Shown here: positions 9,259 through 59,289 of the stretch, piece after piece
Numbering within the stretch: the first letter of the stretch is position 1
Layout of the letters: the number at the start of each line of letters is the position of its first letter
Assembly: GCA_964598765.1 (NCBI GenBank)
Contig: CAZRCZ010000001.1
Span: forward strand, 342,327-406,326
DNA: 64,000 nt
Reading direction: 5' to 3'
Origin: an uncultured Candidatus Sumerlaeota bacterium
GTDB taxonomy: Bacteria > Sumerlaeota > Sumerlaeia > MVZB01 > JAJFLK01
The notes under the pieces: generated by a model
What the model saw: only the letters and a program-made list of their open reading frames with translations
Databases searched by the model: none
What the model was told of the DNA's origin: nothing
Translations under genes and position numbers: made by a program

Positions 9259-11223
9259 TTACGGCTTGGACGAAGTCGGTTTCTTCTCGGACGCTTCCGC
9301 AAGCCGATTAACAACCATCGAGACGGTAAGCAATCCATCCGGTAGCACGATTGGCTCGCCCGGGCGTCCAGCGGGAAAAACCACATAGAGCGGCACGCCG
9401 CTCCTGCCGAACTGATGCAGGACTCGGGTGATTTCCGGCGAGCGGTTTGTGTAATCCGCCTTGAGCGTAATTACATTGTATTTCGCAAGAGCGTCTTGAA
9501 TCGCCTGAGTGGCGAGAACGGCTTTTTCATTCACCTTGCATGTCAAGCACCAATCGGCGGTGAAATCCACGAAGACGGTTTTATTTTCCGCCGCCAGCTT
9601 TTCGACCAAATCCACGCTGAACGATTGCCATTGGATTTTGCCATCGGCGATTGAAACTGTTTGGCGCGCGTCAATTCCGGGTTTTTCCTTTACTCTCAGA
9701 AATCTTTCGGGAAAATAAAGATAGGACACAAGAATCAACGCCGATGCTGAAGCGGCGAAGGTGAGCCGCTTCTTATTTGTTGCTCGCAGATCAAATCCGA
9801 GACCGAGCAACCAGCAAGCCAATCCTACCACCGTCAAAAAAGCCAGCGTTTGAATGATACCCTCCGAACCGATTTGTCCTCCCACGACCGACAACAACCA
9901 CACCACAGTCGCCATCAAAAGAAATCCCATTATCTGTTTGAAGACGTCCATCCACGCGCCCGGTTTGGGCATGAATTTGAGCCAGCCCGGTTTGGCGGTC
10001 AGCAAAACGTAAGGCGAGGCTAGCCCGCCGGCAATGGCGAGAAAAAAAAGATAAATGACGAGCGGCGGTTGCGCGAAGGCAAATCCCAAGGCGGGAGCCA
10101 GTAGGGGAGCCGTGCAGGGCGTCGCTAAAGCCGTGGCTAGTACGCCGTTGAAAAACGCCCCAGCCGCCCCCTCACGTCTTTGCAATCCTTCCACCCCTTC
10201 GATGGCCGTCCCGGGCAGTTCGACGGTGAAGACTCCGAAGAGGCTCAACCCGAACGCGAAGACAATCGCGCACATGAGAATCACGAAGCGCGGTTCTTGG
10301 AATTGAAATCCCCACCCGATTTGCGTTCCCGCGCCTTGAACCGCAACGACCACCGACGCCAAGGCGGCGAAGGATGCGAAAACTCCCAAGGCAAAAACAA
10401 GACCGAGCCGGAAAACACGCTTCGGTTCTTCGCCCGATTGTCGGACAAAACTCAAAATTTTGATCGAAAGGACGGGCAAAACGCAGGGCATGATGTTCAG
10501 CAACAGCCCGCCCAAAAACGCGAAGACCAAGAAACCGATCGTTGATTTCTCCGCTTTCGATTCCTTTTTCTCCTTCAAAAAAGAAAATACCTGTCCCTGC
10601 TCCGTCGCCTTGATCCCTTGCTCTTTTGGCGGAGTCGCCGTCGTCGCGACAGGGGTGGAGATCGGAGTCTCGCGTGGAACAGTCTCCGCGTAGTGATCGA
10701 ACAAAGAGGAGAAAGCCGAAGCGGCCGCTTTGCCGGCGGAAAGCGAAAGTTCAATTTCCATTTCTCCCGGAATACATTGGCCGTCCAGCTTGCAGACGAG
10801 CCAGTTCGTCTTGGCGGAAAGCTTATATTTCTTGTCGGACTCCAAATTCGTCGTCGGCGTCACGGAGGCGAAAATCAAAACCTCACTCTCGTAGCCGATA
10901 TTGACGATCCCGGCGGTTTCGATTCTTTTCGGCTCCGGCCATTGCAAGGGTCCGGCGGTGAATCCCTCGGGGAGTTCCCAATGGATTTCGGTCGGCAGGC
11001 CGATTTCTCCCGGCGTGTGCCAATAGATGTGCCACTGTGGGTCTATCTTGAACAACGCGCCGAGCCGGAACGGTTTCCCCGGCTCGATGGCGTCGGTATC
11101 GGCGATCAGCGAAACTTGAACGTGTTCTTCCTTTGCCGAAACCGCCGACGCAAAGCAAAAAGCGGCCATAAAAATTAGCAACGACGTTCGGCCGGTCTGT
11201 GAGCCTTGTTGCATCGAGTTCAT
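9259..11223 (-). CDS. dsbD: Thiol:disulfide interchange protein DsbD
   Basis: Signal peptide, central cytochrome-c-biogenesis-type transmembrane region (NIMPCVLPVLSIK), C-terminal thioredoxin fold with WCLTC motif. Start taken at ATG 11223 (signal peptide MNSMQQ...). Confidence 0.85.
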   Translation of the reverse strand: MNSMQQGSQTGRTSLLIFMAAFCFASAVSAKEEHVQVSLIADTDAIEPGKPFRLGALFKIDPQWHIYWHTPGEIGLPTEIHWELPEGFTAGPLQWPEPKRIETAGIVNIGYESEVLIFASVTPTTNLESDKKYKLSAKTNWLVCKLDGQCIPGEMEIELSLSAGKAAASAFSSLFDHYAETVPRETPISTPVATTATPPKEQGIKATEQGQVFSFLKEKKESKAEKSTIGFLVFAFLGGLLLNIMPCVLPVLSIKILSFVRQSGEEPKRVFRLGLVFALGVFASFAALASVVVAVQGAGTQIGWGFQFQEPRFVILMCAIVFAFGLSLFGVFTVELPGTAIEGVEGLQRREGAAGAFFNGVLATALATPCTAPLLAPALGFAFAQPPLVIYLFFLAIAGGLASPYVLLTAKPGWLKFMPKPGAWMDVFKQIMGFLLMATVVWLLSVVGGQIGSEGIIQTLAFLTVVGLACWLLGLGFDLRATNKKRLTFAASASALILVSYLYFPERFLRVKEKPGIDARQTVSIADGKIQWQSFSVDLVEKLAAENKTVFVDFTADWCLTCKVNEKAVLATQAIQDALAKYNVITLKADYTNRSPEITRVLHQFGRSGVPLYVVFPAGRPGEPIVLPDGLLTVSMVVNRLAEASEKKPTSSKP

Positions 11224-16781: not shown

Positions 16782-16840
16782 AAGGATTTTGGATGAGCGG
16801 GAAGAAGGCGGAGTGAAATGAGATTAAAATTAAGATTAGG

Positions 16841-16888
16841 AGCAAGAGCAAGAGCAAGAGCAAGAGTAAGAGTAAGAGTAAGAGCAAG
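16841..16888 (+). repeat. Hexanucleotide tandem repeat (AGCAAG/AGTAAG) x8 in fmt leader
   Basis: agcaag x4, agtaag x3, agcaag x1 read directly; lies 64-111 nt upstream of fmt ATG. Confidence 0.9.
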
Positions 16889-16951
16889 AGAAGCGGAATC
16901 GGAATCTTAAGTTTCCAACCTCAAAACTCGGATCTAAAATTAAAGTTTAAG

Positions 16952-23615: not shown

Positions 23616-23709
23616 AAACACAAAGACACAAAGAAGGCACAAAGAATGGTGAGGCCGTGTGTCTTCCTAATCCCTTGTATTCTTTGTGACTCCTTCGTGT
23701 CTTTGTGTA
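23616..23709. repeat. Imperfect palindrome of tandem CACAAAG heptamers (CACAAAG subfamily, copy 1)
   Basis: Arms aaacacaaagacacaaagaaggcacaaagaatg and cattctttgtgactccttcgtgtctttgtgt separated by ~30 nt; shares a 23-nt identical core with 57445-57571. Confidence 0.85.
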
Positions 23710-23715
23710 TAATCT

Positions 23716-28289: not shown

Positions 28290-30275
28290 CTACGCTTTCG
28301 CCTCATTCATCACGGCGGGAATCACGTCAAGCTGGACCGTTTCGGTCGTCAGGCGTCCGTCATCGGTGAGGCCGAAATAGACGGCGGCTGAGGGGACATT
28401 GGCGAGCATTCGCCGGAAAAATTTGAGCCGCAAACGATCCAGACCGGACAAACCGACGAGCGAGATATTTTCGGTTCCCACCAAAATGGACCACTGTCGC
28501 AGGGGAATCTGAATTTTCAATATTCCGGAATCGTTCAACTCGCGCAACGCGACATTCAAATTTGGAGATTCCATGTAACCATACATCGCTTGAACGGTGT
28601 AAAGCGTCCCCAGTTCGCTGTCCTGAAGCGTCAGGACCAAATACCGCTCCTCGGGTTTATGGATGTTCATGTATGGCGAACGATGGGAGATGACCGTCAC
28701 CATGACGAGGTGGCGATAGACGACGCCTTTCAAATGCCCCAATCTGCTTTCCAACGGAGGCGGAACCAAATCTGTCTCGGCCGAAACAGGGCGCGACGAC
28801 AGGACGACCAGAGGCGTCTCGATGTGTCCCATCGCCGGATCGGCCTTCATTCGGGCCAATTCCCCCATGGTCATTTTTCCCTTGGCCTGATACCGCTCCG
28901 CGACCAGTTTGCGTCCCCATTCCCACGTCTGCATCGTCACGAAAAAGCTGACCGCGATCAGGACGGGAACGTAGCCCCCTTGGAGGAATTTTAGGGCGTT
29001 GGCGCTGAAGAAAGTCAAATCCACCGCGATCAGCGCGGCGCAAGCCGGCCCGATGATCCATCCCTTCCATTTCCAGTGGTATCGCGCCACGACGTAAAAG
29101 GCCGCCGTCGTGATTGCCATCGTTCCGGTGACGGCGATTCCATAGGCCGAAGCCAGCGCGTCGGACGTGCGGAACCCGACGACCAGCGTGACGCATCCCG
29201 CGAAGAGCGCCCAATTGATCCAAGGAATGAAAATTTGTCCCTCGACGTTGGGGTTGGTGTGAACGATCCGGAGTCGGGGGAAAACTCCGAGCGCGATGGC
29301 TTGCTGAGTGAGCGAAAATGCGCCGGAAATCAAAGCCTGCGACGCGATGATCGTCGCCGCCGTCGCCAAGGCGATCATCGGATAAATCGCCCAGCCGGGA
29401 ACCAGCGAATAGAAAAGATTGTCGTTCGGAATCTCTCCGGGAGAGAGCAGGCGCGCTCCTTGGCCGAAGTAATTGATAATCAGGCACGGCAAAACGATGG
29501 TCAGCCACGAAAGCCGGATCGCGCGCGGCCCGAAATGCCCCATGTCGGCGTAAAGCGCCTCGGCCCCCGTCACGCAAAGCACGACGGCTCCAAGAATCGG
29601 AAGCGACCGCCCGTCCTGACGGATCAAAAATTCCAATCCGCAAAGAGGATTTAGTCCTCCCAAGACGACCGGATGCCTCCAAATCCAAGGCAATCCGATC
29701 AAGGCGTTGCACACGAGCCAGACGATGACAATCGGTCCGAACAATCCGCCGATTTTGTGCGTCCCGCTCGATTGAAAAAGAAAGAGAACCGTCAGAATCG
29801 CGATGGTTAACGGAACGACGGCGACTTGGAGCGCGGGGGCGGTCACTTCCAATCCCTCGACCGCCGAAAGGACGGAGATGGCGGGCGTAATGACGCCGTC
29901 GCCGTAGAGCAACGCCGCGCCGAGCAAAATTGCGATCCCCGCGCCGAGAAAAATTTGCCTCGGGATCGAGGAGCGTTTCATGCGGATCAAGGCCAGCAGG
30001 GCGAAGATGCCCCCTTCCCCCTCGTTGTCCGCGCGCATGATGAGAAGGACGTATTTGATCGTGACCACGACGATCAAACTCCAAAAGAAAAGCGACAACG
30101 CGCCTTGAACGTTCTCCGTTGTCCGTTCGAGCTGGAAGCGCGAACCGAAAAACGTCGCCTTCATAGCGTAAAGCACCGAGGTCCCGATGTCGCCATACAC
30201 GACGCCCAATGCGCCGAGCATTAAACCCCAAAGGGCCTGCGGCTTGCGTTCGTGCGGCATGGATGGATGGGACAT
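28290..30275 (-). CDS. kup: KUP/HAK/KT-family potassium transporter
   Basis: LGALGVVYGDIGTSVLYA N-terminal signature, 12 TM core, C-terminal cytoplasmic domain. Start at ATG 30275 (GGAG upstream); ORF-track start 30296 is TTG. Confidence 0.9.
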   Translation of the reverse strand: MSHPSMPHERKPQALWGLMLGALGVVYGDIGTSVLYAMKATFFGSRFQLERTTENVQGALSLFFWSLIVVVTIKYVLLIMRADNEGEGGIFALLALIRMKRSSIPRQIFLGAGIAILLGAALLYGDGVITPAISVLSAVEGLEVTAPALQVAVVPLTIAILTVLFLFQSSGTHKIGGLFGPIVIVWLVCNALIGLPWIWRHPVVLGGLNPLCGLEFLIRQDGRSLPILGAVVLCVTGAEALYADMGHFGPRAIRLSWLTIVLPCLIINYFGQGARLLSPGEIPNDNLFYSLVPGWAIYPMIALATAATIIASQALISGAFSLTQQAIALGVFPRLRIVHTNPNVEGQIFIPWINWALFAGCVTLVVGFRTSDALASAYGIAVTGTMAITTAAFYVVARYHWKWKGWIIGPACAALIAVDLTFFSANALKFLQGGYVPVLIAVSFFVTMQTWEWGRKLVAERYQAKGKMTMGELARMKADPAMGHIETPLVVLSSRPVSAETDLVPPPLESRLGHLKGVVYRHLVMVTVISHRSPYMNIHKPEERYLVLTLQDSELGTLYTVQAMYGYMESPNLNVALRELNDSGILKIQIPLRQWSILVGTENISLVGLSGLDRLRLKFFRRMLANVPSAAVYFGLTDDGRLTTETVQLDVIPAVMNEAKA

Positions 30276-30485
30276 GGGGAATCGGTCTCCGCTCAAAGGA
30301 GAGAGGAAGGCACATTACCATTCTAGGAACGGATGTGAAAGTGAGATGTCTTAAATATTAAATCTGCAAGGACCACTGTCGGCGCGATGCTGGTGCCGAC
30401 CGTTCATCTTGTCATGGAGTCGCTACCGGTTTTGGTCATGATCAATCCGTGCTTCTCCGCGTGCAACTGTGTCCAAATTTCCAAC

Positions 30486-30926
30486 CTAAGCCTTGGAATT
30501 CAAAATCTCGACAACCCTTACCGTAAAATTCAAATCTTCTCCCGCCATCGGATGGTTGGCGTCCAGAACGATCCGGTCCTTGCCGACGTGCGCGATGATG
30601 ACAGGCATGAACGCGCCGTTGAGCAGGCGGATTTGAAAGCGTTGCCCGACTTCGACCGGAAGCCCTTCGGGAATTTCATGCGGCTCGGCGGCGAGAATCC
30701 ACTCCTGCCGATGCGGACCGAACGCCTGATCGGAGGAAATCTTGAATTTCTTGGATTGCCCCTTCGCCATGCCGACGATGGCGTGTTCGAATGCCGGAAG
30801 AAATTTTCCCTGACCGAGCGTGAACTGCAACGGCTCACGCCCTTCGGTGCTGTCGAAGACCGCGCCGTCGTTCAGCGTCCCCATGTAGTGAATCTTGACG
30901 GTGTCGCCCTGTTTGACTTGCGCCAT
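30486..30926 (-). CDS. FKBP-type peptidyl-prolyl cis-trans isomerase
   Basis: MAQVKQGDTVKIHYMGTLNDGAVFDSTEGREPLQFTLGQGKFLPAFEHAIVGM is a typical FKBP domain. ATG at 30926. Confidence 0.8.
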   Translation of the reverse strand: MAQVKQGDTVKIHYMGTLNDGAVFDSTEGREPLQFTLGQGKFLPAFEHAIVGMAKGQSKKFKISSDQAFGPHRQEWILAAEPHEIPEGLPVEVGQRFQIRLLNGAFMPVIIAHVGKDRIVLDANHPMAGEDLNFTVRVVEILNSKA

Positions 30927-31080
30927 GGTGTCGGTATCGTGTCCTCGTCCGCCGTTTATGGCGGAATCTTTAACTGAACCGCATTCGCGGTTCAAACCCA
31001 ACCCCAAATCCTAACCATGAGGCAAACCCCTTTTCCAGAGGATATTTTACGCGGAACGTTGATTTGATTTTTTGCCACCC

Positions 31081-31180
31081 TCTTCCCATCATTGCTCCTA
31101 CTCTTACTCATTCTCCTTCTCCTGAGAAAAGCATAAACCGCAAGGTGTTGAGAATGAGGAGGAGTAGGAGTATGAGAATG
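31081..31180 (+). repeat. Purine-rich imperfect inverted repeat in leader of M28 peptidase gene
   Basis: ctcctactcttactcattctcc ... gagaatgaggaggagtaggag(tatgagaatgag); the purine-rich arm ends 9 nt before the ATG at 31189. Confidence 0.7.
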
Positions 31181-31188
31181 AGAACGAT

Positions 31189-32901
31189 ATGGAACCAACC
31201 AACACCGACAAGCGATTTTCATTACGCGACCTTCTCGCTTTCGTGCCGATTCTCGTCTTGGCGCTCTGCGCGGCGTTCGCGTTAATGCGGATCACGCCCC
31301 CCAAACCGAAACCCGCCGACGCGCCCGCCTCGGAATTTTCCGCTGAGCGTGCGCTGATCCATCTGCACCAGATCGCCAAAGCGCCGCATCCCTCCGGCTC
31401 CGAGGAACACCGCCGCGTCCGGGAATACGTCATCGGCGAATTAAAAAAATTGGGTCTGGAGCCGGAAATCCAACAATCGGTTTCGGACGAGAAATCAGGC
31501 GGCCATTCCGCCCCCGGCATGACGTTCACCAACATCATGGCGCGATGGAAGGGAACGGACAATTCCCGCGCTCTCTTGATCGCCTGTCACTACGACAGCG
31601 TGGCGATGGGACCCGGCGCGAGCGACGACGGAGCGGGCGTCGTGGCGGTTCTGGAAACGATCCGCGCCTTAAAATCCGGCGCGCCGCCCAAGAACGATCT
31701 GATCTTTCTTTTCACCGACGGCGAGGAGGTCTGCCTCTGCGGAGCGCGGGCGTTCGCGGAGAATCATCCTTGGGCGAAGGACGTCGGATTGGTCGTGAAT
31801 TTCGAGGCGCGTGGGACCGCCGGACCTTCCATCATGTTCGAGACCAGCGCCGAGAACGGTTGGCTGATCTCCCAATACGCCCGCTCCGCCGTTCATCCCT
31901 CCGCCAGTTCGCTCAGCTACGAAGTCTATAAGCGAATGCCGAACGACACCGATCTGACGGTGTTCAAGAAACGGGGATTCGCGGGATTGAATTTCGCGTT
32001 CATCAAGAACGTCAAATTTTATCACACGGCCAACGACACGGTCGAAAATCTGGACAAGCGGAGCCTCCAGCACCACGGCGAGAACGCGCTGGCCATGGCG
32101 CGATGTTTCGGCAATCTCGATCTGCGGGAAATCAAAAAAACGAACGACGTCTATTTCGACGTCCTCGGCGCGTTTGTCATTCGATATTCTGAACATTGGG
32201 CGATTCCGTTGGCGATATTCGCGGTTCTGTTTTATCTGGTGATTACAATGACGGCGATAAAACTTGGCGAGTTTTCGTGGCGGCTGGGATTATTACGATT
32301 GGGTCTGTCGCTGGCCACATTTATTCTTTGGCCGCTCTTGCTCCATCTCCTCTCACTGGTGGGTCATATCAACTCCATTTCCAAGAAGGACCCATCTGGA
32401 TTTGCTTTCACGACCAATCCCTACGCGCTCTTGGGATTTGTTTTGGCGGCGCTTGCTCCCTTTTTCGGGTACTATTTGGCATGGAAGGGGGGTTCGGTCG
32501 TGGAGAAGACGATTGCCGGAGTATTCTGGTGGGTTATTCTGACCCTCCTGACGGTCTTTTTCCTTCCCGGAGCCAGCTATCTCTTCACTTGGCCGCTCAT
32601 CTTTGCCGCGCTCGGAATAGGATTTGTCCTCCAATCCCAGCGAATAGGAGGAAGTCCGATTGTGAGATCGTTTGCTTTGCTTCCTTTCAGTATTCCCGCC
32701 ATCATCCTTTGGACCCCGACCATCTATCTTCTGTTTTTGGCAATGACGCTCAAACTAACAGGCGTGATCGTCTTATTCGTGATGTTGAATCTTGAACTTT
32801 TTGCCCCTCACTCCGCGCCTTTATCGCCGCGACTACGTTCCGTTGCAATAATCGCAACCGTGGTGATCGGCATCGGCCTTGTAACCTATATTCTCCGGTG
32901 A
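31189..32901 (+). CDS. M28-family metallopeptidase with C-terminal polytopic membrane domain
   Basis: Peptidase M28 motifs (HYDSV, SDDGAGV, DGEE, metal ligands) in N-terminal half; C-terminal half with multiple TM helices. Confidence 0.75.
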   Translation: MEPTNTDKRFSLRDLLAFVPILVLALCAAFALMRITPPKPKPADAPASEFSAERALIHLHQIAKAPHPSGSEEHRRVREYVIGELKKLGLEPEIQQSVSDEKSGGHSAPGMTFTNIMARWKGTDNSRALLIACHYDSVAMGPGASDDGAGVVAVLETIRALKSGAPPKNDLIFLFTDGEEVCLCGARAFAENHPWAKDVGLVVNFEARGTAGPSIMFETSAENGWLISQYARSAVHPSASSLSYEVYKRMPNDTDLTVFKKRGFAGLNFAFIKNVKFYHTANDTVENLDKRSLQHHGENALAMARCFGNLDLREIKKTNDVYFDVLGAFVIRYSEHWAIPLAIFAVLFYLVITMTAIKLGEFSWRLGLLRLGLSLATFILWPLLLHLLSLVGHINSISKKDPSGFAFTTNPYALLGFVLAALAPFFGYYLAWKGGSVVEKTIAGVFWWVILTLLTVFFLPGASYLFTWPLIFAALGIGFVLQSQRIGGSPIVRSFALLPFSIPAIILWTPTIYLLFLAMTLKLTGVIVLFVMLNLELFAPHSAPLSPRLRSVAIIATVVIGIGLVTYILR

Positions 32902-46882: not shown

Positions 46883-46957
46883 TTCACCACAGAGACACAG
46901 AGAGGGTGAAAAAATGCGGACTCGCACTTTTCTACTTCTCTGTGTCTGCGTGGTGAA
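46883..46957. repeat. Imperfect palindrome of tandem CACAGAG heptamers (between convergent genes)
   Basis: Arms ttcaccacagagacacagagagg and cttctctgtgtctgcgtggtgaa; loop ~29 nt; sits between the mqn-like stop and the GT4 stop. Confidence 0.85.
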
Positions 46958-49155: not shown

Positions 49156-52100
49156 TCACTTCAGCGTCGAGATGAACTCCACCAAATCGCGCAATTCGGA
49201 TTTGGCGAGATTTTCAGAAATGTCTTCGGGCATCGAGGAGAGATTGTGCTGGCGGGAGACGATTTGATCCTTGGGGAGCGTCATCTTCGTCACTCGCGGG
49301 CCTTTAGTGGCTTCCGACTCCCACTTTTCGTTCTTATCCTTCTCCTTCTCATCCTCCTTTTCGTCCTTTTTTGCTTCCGTCCCCTTCGGCGCATCCTCCT
49401 CCTCGACAAATTCCTCCCCTTCTTCTTGGACTGGAATCTCCAGTAGAATCTGGTTTCCTTCTTCTTCCAGAACCCGTCCGGCGTATTCCTTGCCGTCTTT
49501 CATCGTCAGCGTGACGTTCTCAAATCCCTCGGCGATTTGCGCGTTGGGATGAAGAATGGATTCGAGGATGTATTCGCGCCCCTTGCGTGTGCCGACGCTC
49601 GGTAGCTCCGGCCCGACTTCGCCTCCCACTTTGCTTTTAACCGTATGGCATTTCTGGCAGGTGACTTCAGTTTTCTCGAAGAAAATTTTCTCTCCCCGCT
49701 CGGCGTTGCCGCCGAAGAGCGACTCGCGGAATCCGCCGAGCGGATCATCCGTGGAAATCGCGGATTGATACCGCGCCAACTTCATTTTGATCTCATCGTT
49801 CGGATGCTTCTGGGCCGCTTCGAGCAGATCGAGTTGAATTTCGGCGGGGACTTTTTTCGCCGCCAGCGAATCGAGCCACGTCGAGAGCAGTTGATCGAAT
49901 TGCGCTCCCTCCAAATCGGCGAGCGTCGCCAGCGCCCCTTGCTTTTCGAGGATGCTTCCCCCGTTGAGCGCCGTCGCCAAGACGCTCGCCGCTCCGGCGG
50001 GATCGAGTTTGGCGAGTTGAGCGTTCCCCTCGTTGCGTAGCGCGTCGGCGGCGTCGGCGCGGGCGAGGTTCACCGCCTTGGCGAGGTTGGGGTCCTCGAA
50101 TTCGCCGAGCGCCCTCAGCGCCTCAACTCGCGCCTCGGTTGGCTTTTTCGCGTCGGAGAGCAACGCAAAGAGGGGCGCGCCCGCCTCAGCGACTTGATAC
50201 TGTCCGGCGAGTTGCGCGCAGGCCTGCAAAATTTTGTTCGGCGCGGAGCGGAGAAGTTCGGGCAGGATCGGCCTCAAGGCGCGAGCCGCGGTTTCGGGAT
50301 CGCGCTTGGGCAGAGGACGCCAGACGCCGATCACGCGGTCGCGCCCCGACGGAGACGCCCAATCTTTTAACTCGCCGAGCGCTTCGAGCCTCACGACCTC
50401 GGGCGGCTCCGAGCGCGACGCGAATTCGGCGATGGCTTTGGCGTTCTCCGCGCCGCCCAATCGGAAATTCGCGTTGAGAATCCTCAACATCACCGGCTTG
50501 CCGACCACGTCGGCGTCGGCCATTTTCAGAATGTTTTCGCTCTGGCCGATCATCCCCGCCAGTTCGGGTAGGGCGTCGGCAATCGGAACGTCGTTGATCG
50601 CATGAGCCGCCTCGCTGACGAGCGCCGGATCGCGGTCCTTGAGGAATCGCGCAATTTCCGGTTTTTGCATTCGACGCAAGGCGAGCAAAATTCCCATCCG
50701 CACCGCCGACGATTCGTCATCGGCGTGTTTCAGCAACGCCTCCGCGTCGCCAATCCCGACCAATCCCATCACTCCGGCATGGCGCAGATACGGATCGGCG
50801 TCGTTATTTTCGCGAAGCATTTCCGCCAGCGCGGAGATGTATCTGGTTTTAATTTCTTCCGATGGAGGCATCGCCGGAACGCCGGGATTGACGATCTTGC
50901 CAAGACTCATCGCCGTAAAAAAACGGACGCGAAGACTTGCATCTTTGAGTAGATCCAATAATTCCGTCAAATGTGACTCATTTGAATTTAATATTACCGA
51001 ATGTATGTCGCTCAAGACCTTGATTGCTTGGGCACGAATTTCGGCGTTTTCGTCTTTCAAGCACTCAACCAAGACGGCCTCTCCGCGATTGCGCGGATCA
51101 GACAAAAATTCTCCAAGTCCTTTGCCCAACAGTTCGCCTGCCGCTTTTTCCCCTTCTGGTCCTAACTTAAGATCGTTTCCGGAAATTAAAGTAGAGACGA
51201 CAAGAGAAAAAATGAATTGGAACTCTTTCTCTTTATCTTGGGGAGATTGGGCTACGGCTTCGGATTTCGGCTCGACCTTAGGTCCGAGTTTGCTCAGAAC
51301 TTCTCCGATTCCCCAAATTGCGTGGAGCCGTGCCCATGGGCTTCGAGAGCATTTCTCAGCCAATTGTAAAAGCGCCCGTGCTTGAGCATCCGGGTATTCT
51401 CCCGATGTCCAAGAATTTTTGAACTCCTCGGAGTAGGTTTGCGGACTTATGAATGCAATCGTGCCCAGCGTTCCAAATAGCATAAAATCCGAATCACGCC
51501 CAGTCTGGAGCCTTCTCAAATCCCTCCGTGCCAACTCATACTGCGCCTCGAACCGCACTCTTTGATCCTGGTGCGCGAGCAGTTCCCCCAACTCATAATC
51601 GCTGTAGCGATCCAGATTCCCCGCGAGGATTTCCTTTGCCTCCTTGACGAGCGGATCGTTTTTCACCGCGGGATCGAAGGCGTGATAGAGGCGTCCCTTG
51701 TGCGGCTGATCCCAACCTTCGGTCCAATCGGTCCAATAAATGCCCCCCTCAGCGCCGAAATCCACGTCGGTCACGAGGGACCCCTTGAGGAAATCCTCGC
51801 GGTCGGTCATCTCGAACGAGGCCCCCTTGGGTTGGACCTTGAAGGTGTGAATCAGGCTTATCCCCGCTCCGCCGCGAAAATCGCACAGAAAAAAATGATC
51901 CTTGTATCGTTCCGGCATTCCCGTGCCGGGATAAAACGCGAACCCCGCCGGTCCGGCGGCGACGTGCGCGACGGGAGGCACGATATACGCGGCCTGTCCC
52001 TTCCACGGGAGGTGCCAGATTTTTTCGCCGTTCCACGGACCGCGCTGGACCGGCTTTTCGATCCACTGGTAGCCGATCCGCCAGCCGCTGTCGCCCCCCT

Positions 52101-53061
52101 CGACGCAATAGACGAGCCGCGCCTTGTCGCCGGCGTCGGAGTTGTTGTCGCCGGTGAAGAGATTGCCGTAGTCGTCAAAGACGAGTTCCTGCGGGTTGCG
52201 GAGTCCGGTGCAGAACGGCTCCAATTGCGAGCCGTCGGGATTGCAACGGAAGACCGCGCCGGTGTCGGGAAGGTCAATGACGCGCCCTTCGGTTTCGATA
52301 TGCGCGCCGCGGTCGCCGATGCTGAAATAAAGTTTGCCGTCGGGGCCTTTGCGCAGACCGTGGAGATCGTGGCCGAGAAAATTAAAGTGGACGCCGTAGC
52401 CCGTGCTGAGCGATTTGCGTTCGTCGGCCTTGCCATCGCCGTCGGTGTCGCGCAGTTTCCAGAGATCCGGGATGCAGGTGTAGTAAATGTCCCCTTGATC
52501 GGCGAGTAATCCCGCGCCGACGCCGTCCTCCGCGTGGTTGAATCCGTCGGCATAAACGACGGCGCGGTCGGCTTTGCCGTCGCCGTCGGTGTCTTCGAGC
52601 AGACGGATGCGCTCGTGCTGTTTGTCGTAGTCCGCGAACGACTCGCCGAGGTTTTTCTTCATCGCGGCGAGCCGATCCGCGACGGTCCGGCTCGCCAGAT
52701 CGTCGTCGAGCCAGAGGCGGTGCGTCCGCATGTCAAGCACGCCGTCATAGAGGCGGAACGTCTCGCCGACGTAAAACCGCCCCTTGTTGTCCAAGCAGAA
52801 ACAGACCGGATTGGCGAGCATCGGCTCGGCGGCGAAAAGCTCGATCTTGAATCCGTCGGCGATTTTGAATTTCTTGATCGCCTTTTCCCCTTCGTCGGAG
52901 GCGGGGTTGATTTGGGGATGATAGGCGGGGTCTTCGGCAAAGGCGAAGGTAAAAAGGGAAAATAAAATCACCACAGAGGCGCAGAGGCACAGAGTAGGGG
53001 CGACCCGTTGAGTCGCCCGCTTTCTTCTCTGTGTCTCTGTGACTCTGTGGTTTTTCTTCAT
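49156..53061 (-). CDS. Large exported protein with beta-propeller 'membrane-bound dehydrogenase'-like domain, HEAT repeats and C-terminal cytochrome-c (CxxCH) domain
   Basis: 1301 aa; N-terminal signal-like segment, HEAT-repeat middle, CQKCH heme-binding motif near C-terminus, acidic Lys/Glu-rich tail. Confidence 0.75.
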   Translation of the reverse strand: MKKNHRVTETQRRKRATQRVAPTLCLCASVVILFSLFTFAFAEDPAYHPQINPASDEGEKAIKKFKIADGFKIELFAAEPMLANPVCFCLDNKGRFYVGETFRLYDGVLDMRTHRLWLDDDLASRTVADRLAAMKKNLGESFADYDKQHERIRLLEDTDGDGKADRAVVYADGFNHAEDGVGAGLLADQGDIYYTCIPDLWKLRDTDGDGKADERKSLSTGYGVHFNFLGHDLHGLRKGPDGKLYFSIGDRGAHIETEGRVIDLPDTGAVFRCNPDGSQLEPFCTGLRNPQELVFDDYGNLFTGDNNSDAGDKARLVYCVEGGDSGWRIGYQWIEKPVQRGPWNGEKIWHLPWKGQAAYIVPPVAHVAAGPAGFAFYPGTGMPERYKDHFFLCDFRGGAGISLIHTFKVQPKGASFEMTDREDFLKGSLVTDVDFGAEGGIYWTDWTEGWDQPHKGRLYHAFDPAVKNDPLVKEAKEILAGNLDRYSDYELGELLAHQDQRVRFEAQYELARRDLRRLQTGRDSDFMLFGTLGTIAFISPQTYSEEFKNSWTSGEYPDAQARALLQLAEKCSRSPWARLHAIWGIGEVLSKLGPKVEPKSEAVAQSPQDKEKEFQFIFSLVVSTLISGNDLKLGPEGEKAAGELLGKGLGEFLSDPRNRGEAVLVECLKDENAEIRAQAIKVLSDIHSVILNSNESHLTELLDLLKDASLRVRFFTAMSLGKIVNPGVPAMPPSEEIKTRYISALAEMLRENNDADPYLRHAGVMGLVGIGDAEALLKHADDESSAVRMGILLALRRMQKPEIARFLKDRDPALVSEAAHAINDVPIADALPELAGMIGQSENILKMADADVVGKPVMLRILNANFRLGGAENAKAIAEFASRSEPPEVVRLEALGELKDWASPSGRDRVIGVWRPLPKRDPETAARALRPILPELLRSAPNKILQACAQLAGQYQVAEAGAPLFALLSDAKKPTEARVEALRALGEFEDPNLAKAVNLARADAADALRNEGNAQLAKLDPAGAASVLATALNGGSILEKQGALATLADLEGAQFDQLLSTWLDSLAAKKVPAEIQLDLLEAAQKHPNDEIKMKLARYQSAISTDDPLGGFRESLFGGNAERGEKIFFEKTEVTCQKCHTVKSKVGGEVGPELPSVGTRKGREYILESILHPNAQIAEGFENVTLTMKDGKEYAGRVLEEEGNQILLEIPVQEEGEEFVEEEDAPKGTEAKKDEKEDEKEKDKNEKWESEATKGPRVTKMTLPKDQIVSRQHNLSSMPEDISENLAKSELRDLVEFISTLK
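52968..53052. repeat. Imperfect palindrome of tandem CACAGAG units (overlaps 5' end of the large dehydrogenase ORF)
   Basis: Arms atcaccacagaggcgcagaggcacagag and ttctctgtgtctctgtgactctgtggtt with an inner gggcgac-ccgttga-gtcgccc hairpin. Confidence 0.85.
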
Positions 53062-54031: not shown

Positions 54032-54113
54032 TTCACCACAGAGACGCAGAGGTACAGAGAAATACTTGGACGCTTTTCACTTCTTCTCTGTGTCTCCTTG
54101 CCTCTGTGGTGAA
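54032..54113. repeat. Imperfect palindrome of tandem CACAGAG units
   Basis: Arms ttcaccacagagacgcagaggtacagagaa and ttctctgtgtctccttgcctctgtggtgaa; immediately upstream of the sugar-binding-protein start. Confidence 0.85.
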
Positions 54114-57371: not shown

Positions 57372-57444
57372 CCCTCTCTCACGCTTTAATTGCTCTGGAA
57401 TCGTGCAGAAAATCTCTGAAATCCGCAAGGGAGTTGGCAGAGGG

Positions 57445-57571
57445 ATTAAACACAAAGACACAAAGAAGGCGCAAAGGTCACAAAGAATGAAGGGATTCCG
57501 CGAATGAAAATCAGAGGCGGATGTTATTCCTTCGTGTCCTTCGTGCCTTCTTTGTGTCTTTGTGTTTAATC
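57445..57571. repeat. Imperfect palindrome of tandem CACAAAG heptamers (CACAAAG subfamily, copy 2)
   Basis: Arms gattaaacacaaagacacaaagaaggcgcaaaggtcacaaagaatgaagg and ccttcgtgtccttcgtgccttctttgtgtctttgtgtttaatc. Confidence 0.85.
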
Positions 57572-57584
57572 TTCTCCCGCCGAA

Positions 57585-59229: not shown

Positions 59230-59253
59230 AATTTTTCCTTGCTCCATGCCCTT

Positions 59254-59289
59254 TTCTTGCTCTTGCTCTTACTCTTGCATCTGCTCTTA
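59254..59289 (-). repeat. Hexanucleotide (AAGAGC-like) tandem repeat in nadE leader
   Basis: Plus-strand cttgct cttgct cttact cttgca tctgct cttaat; in nadE sense it reads attaagagcagatgcaagagtaagagcaagagcaag, 25-60 nt upstream of the proposed start. Confidence 0.85.

Follow-up and report, generated by a model that had tools for sequence, protein, structure and literature searches.

The hairpin that precedes the gene for an M28-family metallopeptidase, at positions 31080-31188 of the 64-kb stretch of DNA analysed here (hereafter the window), is in our estimate, with a probability of roughly 0.55, a somewhat degenerate member of a family of REP-like intergenic palindromes whose arms are composed of hexamers. 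The element exists and has the architecture of a hexamer array, and this architecture recurs at many unrelated loci with a fixed polarity. The family is indifferent to gene starts versus gene ends and is found in every intergenic context. Because the hairpin is one copy of a widespread kind of intergenic palindrome, it is more likely to be a generic stem-loop element in front of the M28 gene than a purpose-built translational switch, and a generic origin can be compatible with the co-option of the window copy for regulation. The term "family" is used here for a shared architecture and not for demonstrated common descent, because the loop of the window copy matches no other copy and no mobilising gene was seen.

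The M28 gene (31189..32901, + strand) encodes a protein of 570 aa with a Peptidase_M28 domain (Pfam, E = 4.7e-53), and its ATG at 31189 is the first start past an in-frame stop codon, TAG at 31165-31167. It is divergent from a gene for an FKBP-type peptidyl-prolyl isomerase (30486..30926, - strand; Pfam FKBP_C, E = 6.2e-20; called on the Logan contig L013 of the same organism), which is followed on the same - strand by kup (Pfam K_trans, E = 4e-172). The two divergent genes are separated by the intergenic region 30927-31188, and the 5' arm of the hairpin lies 169 nt from the FKBP ATG. A scan for the promoter consensus returned a single weak promoter-like site, at 30913-30940 on the + strand, a terminator scan of 30850-31300 returned no terminator-like sites, and no tRNA genes were found in the 64-kb window. 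In protein searches, the M28 protein retrieved one identical database entry followed by a match of 47% identity, and the best non-self match of the FKBP protein was 55% identical. A search of the genome collection with the M28 protein recovered M28 genes of Tenacibaculum only, with 36-39% identity. For Kup, a homologue of 81% identity was found on a contig from a soil metagenome (L012), where it has a different upstream neighbour and the FKBP-M28 neighbourhood is missing.

An inverted repeat upstream of the M28 gene had been proposed in a sequence-only reading of this DNA, and it is present where that reading placed it. The inverted-repeat search returned two arms of 21 nt, 31095-31115 (CTCCTACTCTTACTCATTCTC) and 31150-31170 (GAGAATGAGGAGGAGTAGGAG), which are 90% complementary and separated by a gap of 34 nt, close to the loop of ~35 nt that had been estimated. 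The repeat had been called purine-rich, which is true of the 3' arm only, the 5' arm being its pyrimidine complement. On the + strand, the element begins with an outer 5' flank (31080..31094) containing a degenerate terminal unit, ATCATT(G), which forms weaker pairs with 31172-31183. The pyrimidine arm (31095..31123) follows, with the units CTCCTA, CTCTTA, CTCATT, CTCCTT and CTCCT, the core stem occupying 31095-31115. Between the repeat arms there is a loop or spacer of 34 nt (31116..31149), and the element is completed by the 3' purine arm (31150..31188), composed of the units GAGAAT, GAGGAG, GAGTAG, GAGTAT, GAGAAT and GAGAAC plus GAT; the core stem occupies 31150-31170, and the array as a whole adjoins the ATG. 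TRF reported a period of 6 in both arms, the copy number being 4.8 in 31095-31123 and 6.0 in 31149-31184. The inverted-repeat search also returned a slipped second register, in which 31102-31123 is 82% complementary to 31166-31187, reaching position -2 relative to the start codon.

RNA folding of the leader had been suggested as a check. The + strand RNA of 31080-31200 folds at -41.8 kcal/mol (z = -4.45), and none of 200 dinucleotide shuffles was as stable. The RNA of the - strand folds at -42.2 kcal/mol (z = -3.9). In the predicted pair probabilities, the pairs of the core stem are at ~1.0, the outer pairs 31089-91 x 31173-75 at 0.87-0.90, and the outer pairs 31080-82 x 31180-82 at ~0.57; at one position of the stem, a G-U pair on the + strand corresponds to an A-C mismatch on the - strand. 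The repeat had been described as ending 9 nt before the ATG, which needs correction: the 3' arm of the core stem stops at 31170, leaving 18 nt to the start codon, and it is the weaker outer pairs that reach -7. The hairpin is not an assembly artefact, because the region is 100% identical in the independent Logan assembly (contig L013).

The excess of hairpin stability over chance holds against sequence shuffles only. When the hexamer units were permuted within each arm, the fold energy was -43.7 +/- 4.1 kcal/mol, with 67% of permutations at least as stable as the native order (z = +0.46), and when the variable positions were resampled in both arms, it was -43.5 +/- 5.7 kcal/mol. Since unit permutations are equally stable, the stability comes from the presence of two inverted arrays and not from a tuned order of units, and the exact pairing between the arms bears no sign of optimisation.

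To place the element among others of its kind, the family was defined as at least three CTCNTN units followed, on the same strand and 10-60 nt apart, by at least three GAGNAN units. The pattern ACTCNTNCTCNTNCTC-N20-50-GAGNANGAGNANGAG was matched in 7 viral contigs and in at least 120 metagenome contigs, and the architecture can be written as 5'-(A)TCNTN-(CTCNTN)n - 10-50-nt loop - (NANGAG)n-NANGA(T/A)-3', which is identical on both strands. Among the matches listed, there are 4-16 units per arm, the commonest being CTCTTA, CTCGTA, CTCCTA, CTCGTC and their complements; the palindrome carries outward a degenerate terminal unit (A)TCNTN ... NANGA(T/A) and inward CTCG...CGAG, and its fold has a median of -41 kcal/mol and 29 pairs, compared with -41.8 kcal/mol for the window copy. 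The loops are unrelated in most of the copies listed, and one loop, GGGTTTCAAAGCGGCTCAAAAGCTTC, occurs among the matches listed in ~13 loci with unrelated flanks. The loop of the window copy (31116-31150) had no match in a blastn-short comparison with 127 related loci, among the matches listed, and the flanking ORFs of the 127 loci listed include no common protein family and no transposase.

The window copy has five CTC units (31095-31123) and six GAG units (31150-31185), in keeping with the definition of the family, and its CTC arm comes first and its GAG arm second, as in the other members. Its 3' end, GAGAAC-GAT, fits the terminal unit of the family, and the 5' end, ATCATT+G, agrees with it only if one inserted nucleotide is allowed. 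It is intergenic (FKBP/M28), its fold energy is at the family median, and it is the only paired hexamer-array palindrome in the 64-kb window. A second family of palindromes, with tandem-octamer arms (ACACAAAG/CACAGAG ... CTCTGTG/CTTTGTGT), is represented in the window by at least five copies; these always have the opposite kind of arm order, and one of them folds at -74.9 kcal/mol.

The positions of the family members relative to genes were determined with a rule of length dominance, which was adopted because a self-trained codon-usage caller mixed sense and antisense ORFs (the antisense of the FKBP gene scored as high). A flanking ORF was taken as confident if it had at least 200 codons and exceeded every overlapping competitor in length by a factor of at least 1.5; in a spot check of this rule, 7 of 8 flanking ORFs had Pfam domains on the called strand. 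With confident ORFs, and among the matches listed, 52 element sides are 3' of a gene and 50 are 5' of a gene, and the 3'-of-gene copies are found at a median of 59 nt past the stop codon, many of them at 6-45 nt. Where both flanks are confident (n=20, among the matches listed), 16 pairs are tandem, 3 convergent and 1 divergent, the last being the kind of setting in which the window copy is found. Individual copies can be very close to genes on either side: in L148, a hydrolase gene begins with its ATG right after the last GAG (0 nt) and the stop codon of the upstream gene is 18 nt before the 5' arm, and in L192, the hairpin, which ends with GAGAACGATAATGG, is separated by 24 nt from the next ATG and is located downstream of the canonical terminator of the preceding gene.

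The order of the arms is fixed among the matches listed: in 698 kb of retrieved loci together with the 64-kb window, 126 elements are pyrimidine-first and none has the mirror order, and the corresponding counts without seed matches are 11 and 0, again among the matches listed. The mirror-order pattern gave 4 matches in viral contigs, which resemble coding low-complexity sequence. Since a fixed-register comparison of the arms is ambiguous (among the matches listed, complementarity in fixed outer and inner registers is 0.59-0.61 vs 0.52-0.56 for shuffled units), the unit-permutation test of minimum free energy was used instead. Among the matches listed, it gave a mean permutation z of -0.31 (p = 0.08); as in the window copy, one arm mirrors the unit order of the other only weakly. 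The family retains two arrays with a fixed polarity rather than an exact palindrome.

A few observations bear on the level at which the family is maintained. In three orthologous loci, L174, L221 and L202, the hairpin is kept in all, and L174 differs from L221 by two A-to-G changes, each of which makes a G-U pair on the transcribed strand. Among the matches listed, 154 G-U pairs are on the inferred sense strand vs 126 on the antisense strand (37 vs 23 hairpins, p = 0.09), and the sense fold is on average 1.0 kcal/mol more stable (Wilcoxon p = 0.048). This strand asymmetry is a weak hint of constraint at the RNA level, the RNA-level statistics of the family being marginal (p = 0.05-0.09).

The same observations are relevant to an interpretation in which RNA plays no part, namely that the palindrome acts as DNA, as a cruciform-prone or protein-bound site (an operator or a site for a nucleoid protein), or that it is a neutral, tolerated product of slippage and template switching. 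We keep this as an unlikely possibility, because both strands fold equally well (-41.8 and -42.2 kcal/mol) and the site is in a promoter region, lying between divergent genes, where promoters must be. The microsatellite-like arms with their unoptimised pairing are in agreement with it, and the constant arm order of the family would likewise be consistent with a protein that binds or processes DNA sequence-specifically. However, ordinary operators do not resemble a palindrome with 21-bp arms and a 34-bp spacer, the strand asymmetry of the family, weak as it is, favours the transcribed strand, the hairpin is kept at the orthologous loci L174/L221/L202, and slippage combined with inversion should give both arm orders, of which one alone was seen among the matches listed.

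Another interpretation is suggested by arrays that occur without a partner. The repeated GAG-N3 motif has 18 occurrences in the window vs 0.34 expected. A solo purine array of 10 GAGYAA units (16831..16890, + strand) is located 62 nt upstream of the fmt ATG without a pyrimidine partner, and a solo GAGYAA-type array (59255..59289, - strand) is located 24-58 nt upstream of the probable nadE start, TTG at 59231, also without a partner arm; both are on the sense strand. By analogy, the two arms of the hairpin could be two independent sense-strand purine arrays, one for each divergent gene, with (GAGNAN)n serving as an unstructured tract with many SD-like motifs or as a binding site for a multimeric protein and the hairpin being a by-product. 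Such a pair of divergent sense arrays would automatically yield the pyrimidine-then-purine order. Nevertheless, we find this explanation hardly probable: the minus-strand array is 169 nt from the FKBP start and closer to M28, and the paired form is found mainly between tandem genes (16 of the 20, among the matches listed), where one arm is antisense to everything. The solo examples in the window are just two, and (GAGYAA)n alone occurs in at least 120 viral contigs, many of them from giant-virus MAGs; a scan for it is uninformative because (GAGYAA)n is a generic microsatellite.

For the M28 gene itself, the question is what the hairpin would do to translation initiation. The sequence-only reading had GGAGG-like sequence directly upstream of the ATG, which does not agree with the distances: GGAGG (31158-31162) is 26 nt and AGGAG (31166-31170) 18 nt from the ATG at 31189, and both are therefore too distant to be the SD sequence of M28. 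The closest SD-like triplet is the GAG at -9..-7. In the predicted fold its unpaired probability is <=0.04, so that it is almost never free, because the weaker outer pairs extend the structure; the A of the AUG is predicted to be open, as are positions -6..-1. If the leader starts anywhere upstream of 31081, opening of the region -18..+12 is predicted to cost 10.8-12.0 kcal/mol, compared with 4.2 kcal/mol for a start at 31150, therefore the hairpin adds ~7 kcal/mol. The cost for M28, 11.6 kcal/mol, ranks 6th among 20 genes of the window (range 3.0-17.7 kcal/mol), with some of the start codons in this ranking having been called in the present analysis. SD-like motifs are missing upstream of many genes of the window and SD use is weak, hence SD sequestration may matter little in this organism. 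Besides, the M28 mRNA may start downstream of the 5' arm, in which case the hairpin is not in the M28 mRNA.

The proposed sequestration of the ribosome-binding region is therefore supported in one part: for an mRNA that starts upstream of 31095, the GAG/GGAGG motifs between -39 and -7 are without exception predicted to be paired. The AUG and the positions -6..-1 are predicted to be open, and with an opening cost that ranks 6th of 20 genes the initiation region is closed to a moderate degree only. The larger claim, that of a dedicated translational control element, is not supported, although the geometry allows it. A dedicated M28 leader would hide the ribosome-binding region in the hairpin and open it in response to temperature, a protein, an sRNA or upstream events, and a number of features are what such a leader should have: a stable fold (z = -4.45), SD-like motifs that are paired up to the GAG at -9..-7, an additional ~7 kcal/mol for the opening of the initiation region, a slipped register (31102-31123 / 31166-31187) that reaches -2 and could give two states, and one G-U pair on the + strand where the - strand has an A-C mismatch. 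Nonetheless, we regard it as decidedly unlikely, given the unremarkable opening cost, the open AUG, the distance of the strong SD-like motifs (18-26 nt) from it in a genome with weak SD use, the unoptimised order of units and the lack of a match to any Rfam family. Moreover, the architecture is found at no fewer than 120 unrelated metagenome loci, and among the matches listed it is behind stop codons about as often as before starts; no orthologous leaders were found in which the pairing could be compared, the best non-self homologues being 47% (M28) and 55% (FKBP) identical.

In the preferred reading, that of a generic family member, the palindrome would form a very stable RNA stem-loop (~-42 kcal/mol) in any transcript that crosses it, in the manner of REP elements. 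A stem-loop behind a gene would protect 3' ends or insulate neighbouring cistrons, and one in front of a gene would keep its purine-rich, SD-like arm covered. An M28 transcript that starts upstream of 31095 would have the stem-loop in its 5' leader, in which all the GAG motifs from -39 to -7 would be paired and the cost of initiation increased by ~7 kcal/mol. Translation of M28 would then be damped moderately and constitutively, possibly with stabilisation of the 5' end, and the element would not be a signal-responsive switch evolved for M28. Such damping by the hairpin is plausible and probably incidental. Two observations weigh against the generic reading: the window holds a single palindrome of this kind, and a divergent setting is rare in the family (1 of 20, among the matches listed).

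Among known systems, REP/BIME elements are functionally the closest. In work on malEFG and the his operon, REPs reportedly affect the expression of the downstream cistron. REPs are also associated with RAYT transposases, none of which was seen near the window element. REPs are short imperfect intergenic palindromes found within operons and after genes, which form stable transcribed stem-loops and for which roles in termination and mRNA stabilisation have been hypothesised; their length is 20-40 bp, and one of their ends carries a GTAG or CGTC tag (PMC3733652). The window element, on the other hand, has ~100 bp (31080-31188) and arms of tandem hexamers, and in its family the loops differ between most copies; it ends with ...CCCATCATTG / ...AACGAT and lacks the tag, GTAG being present only inside the 3' arm (31163-31166). 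A classical REP was rejected on the grounds of the wrong size and the missing GTAG/CGTC tag. The family resembles MITEs in being small, non-coding, dispersed and equipped with hairpin-forming inverted-repeat ends, but most of its copies have no common internal sequence and there is no cognate transposase in the flanks; assignment as a MITE was rejected, as no target-site duplication is present around ...CTCTTCCC|ATCATTG ... AACGAT|ATGGAACC. An intrinsic terminator was rejected as well, since no T-run is present (TATGAGAATGAG comes after the stem) and the genes on the two sides are divergent, and the intrastrand-triplex motif of PMC4666352 is different, being G/C-rich.

The hairpins that sequester ribosome-binding sites (ROSE and fourU thermometers, translational operators) likewise present a stem-loop before a start codon with SD-like purines in the 3' strand, but in the window element the AUG and -6..-1 are predicted to be open and the architecture is not specific to a gene. 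Melting-type thermometers are, in addition, far less stable than the 21-bp core stem. A search of the hairpin region against Rfam, with permissive as well as gathering thresholds, returned just generic miRNA-hairpin models below the gathering threshold (26.7 bits vs a gathering score of 97), nothing in the whole 64-kb window reached the gathering score, and 20 loci of the family had no match to any Rfam family. Intergenic short tandem repeats, which are arrays of 6-7-nt units restricted to intergenic DNA, are exemplified by the cyanobacterial STRR heptamers. The TAACTGA direct repeats of Beggiatoaceae and cyanobacteria are also intergenic, are present in many copies per genome and have a proposed, unproven post-transcriptional role (PMC4679880). 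TAACTGA and STRR are, however, direct repeats without a complementary partner, whereas the window element comprises two complementary arrays, is palindromic and has a fixed polarity; heptamers of the TAACTGA type are comparable with nothing but the solo arrays.

GAG triplets at a fixed short spacing upstream of a start codon are also reminiscent of the binding sites of TRAP. This protein is known from Bacillus and its relatives; its repeats are 2-3 nt apart, and some of its targets overlap the ribosome-binding region, with binding in competition with an RNA hairpin. The target in Bacillus trp leaders has 11 (G/U)AG repeats (PMC4027176). The window element differs in that its GAGs are pre-paired to a complementary array and that its family occurs in many contexts. 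A TRAP site was rejected: there are 6 GAG with 3-nt spacers vs 9-11 repeats, and 8 (G/U)AG only if adjacent triplets are counted. The strict polarity and the 6-nt periodicity of the family, in which every third position is T (or A), are unexplained and leave room for an element read by a protein. By analogy, the CTCNTN/GAGNAN palindromes might be a widespread, so far undescribed class of bacterial cis-elements recognised by an oligomeric, TRAP- or HutP-like protein that contacts GAG/CTC every 6 nt, a proposal that we consider very unlikely. Such a protein would bind the purine arm in its single-stranded state, in competition with hairpin formation, and the competition would switch translation of the downstream gene (here M28) or the fate of the 3' end of the upstream transcript; the fixed order of arms and the strict 6-nt periodicity would then be the footprint of the protein.

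As outlined above, the hairpin is best regarded as one copy of a generic element, and the consequence for M28 would be small: at most a moderate, probably constant drop in translation of the peptidase. The hexamer-array palindrome architecture is common in environmental bacteria and missing from Rfam, and a search of the accessible literature by repeat sequence and keyword found no description of CTCNTN/GAGNAN palindromes, a class which is apparently undescribed. Hexamer-array palindromes generate spurious ORFs and break assemblies, and single copies are prone to being repeatedly misread as gene-specific riboregulators. If their polarity and periodicity reflect a binding protein or a specific generating mechanism, they would provide a handle on post-transcriptional organisation in poorly studied phyla.

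The palindrome of hexamer units (a CTCNTN arm, a loop and a GAGNAN arm) that occupies positions 31080-31188, immediately before the ATG of the M28 metallopeptidase gene (31189), lies between the divergent FKBP and M28 genes. Of the proteins encoded at window positions 28290-32901, the potassium transporter Kup has an 81% identical homologue on a soil-metagenome contig (L012), whereas the closest homologues of the adjoining FKBP and M28 proteins in any source are only 55% and 47% identical, respectively. The upstream neighbour of kup in L012 differs from that in the window. The FKBP-M28 pair may be a lineage-specific insertion, or else sampling of the lineage may be very sparse.

A 35-codon ORF (31178-31285, forward strand) overlaps the M28 start out of frame, and AGGAG (31166-31170), located 7 nt upstream of its ATG at 31178, is better spaced as a Shine-Dalgarno sequence for this ATG than for that of M28; the ORF itself is probably spurious. 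In the start regions of about 40 ORFs of the window, many well-supported genes, including fmt and kup, exhibit none of the motifs GGAG, GAGG, AGGA or AAGG in the 25 nt preceding the start codon, and Shine-Dalgarno use appears weak in the source organism, as judged from these start regions.

Purine-rich hexamers are also found as solo arrays of the GAGYAA type, located on the sense strand and lacking a complementary arm in both cases: ten units at 16831-16890 (forward strand), which lie 62 nt before the ATG of fmt between the two halves of an 8-nt inverted repeat (TTAAGATT / AATCTTAA), and about five units at 59255-59289 (reverse strand), 24-58 nt upstream of the start of nadE, a probable TTG. 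GAG-N3 periodicity was also observed at 49330-49371 (reverse strand), within a 1301-codon ORF (49156-53061), where it probably reflects a coding segment rich in Glu, Lys and Asp and does not belong with the intergenic arrays.

Intergenic palindromes of another family, with arms built from octamers in tandem, are present in five copies in the 64-kb window (23616-23710, 46886-46955, 52968-53052, 54033-54113 and 57443-57572, the last with a fold energy of -74.9 kcal/mol). One form reads TTAA-ACACAAAG-ACACAAAG...CTTTGTGT-CTTTGTGT-TTAA and the other TTCACCACAGAG-ACACAGAG...CTCTGTG-CTCTGTGGTGAA, and in the window the A/G/C-rich arm always comes first. Because the arms are near-identical in two of the copies, their sequences suggest a dispersed repeat.

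Among the hexamer palindromes of metagenome loci, that of L148 (about 9268-9345 of the oriented strand) constitutes the entire spacer between two tandem genes: an erythromycin-esterase gene stops 18 nt upstream of the 5' arm, and the last GAG is directly followed by the ATG of a dienelactone-hydrolase-like gene, a placement that would suit translational coupling or occlusion. Many of the metagenome matches listed (e.g. L147, L154, L160, L169, L172 and L175) are no more than about 100 nt away from the end of their contig, as would be expected from assembly-breaking repeats or strong hairpins. In one sub-family of the hexamer palindromes the loop, 26 nt long, is conserved between copies (GGGTTTCAAAGCGGCTCAAAAGCTTC and variants); the members are L141, L147, L170 (two copies), L181, L182, L195, L196, L205, L208, L229, L234 and L258, with flanking genes unrelated between the loci. 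This sub-family looks like a truly dispersed repeat, possibly mobile, in some abundant organism.
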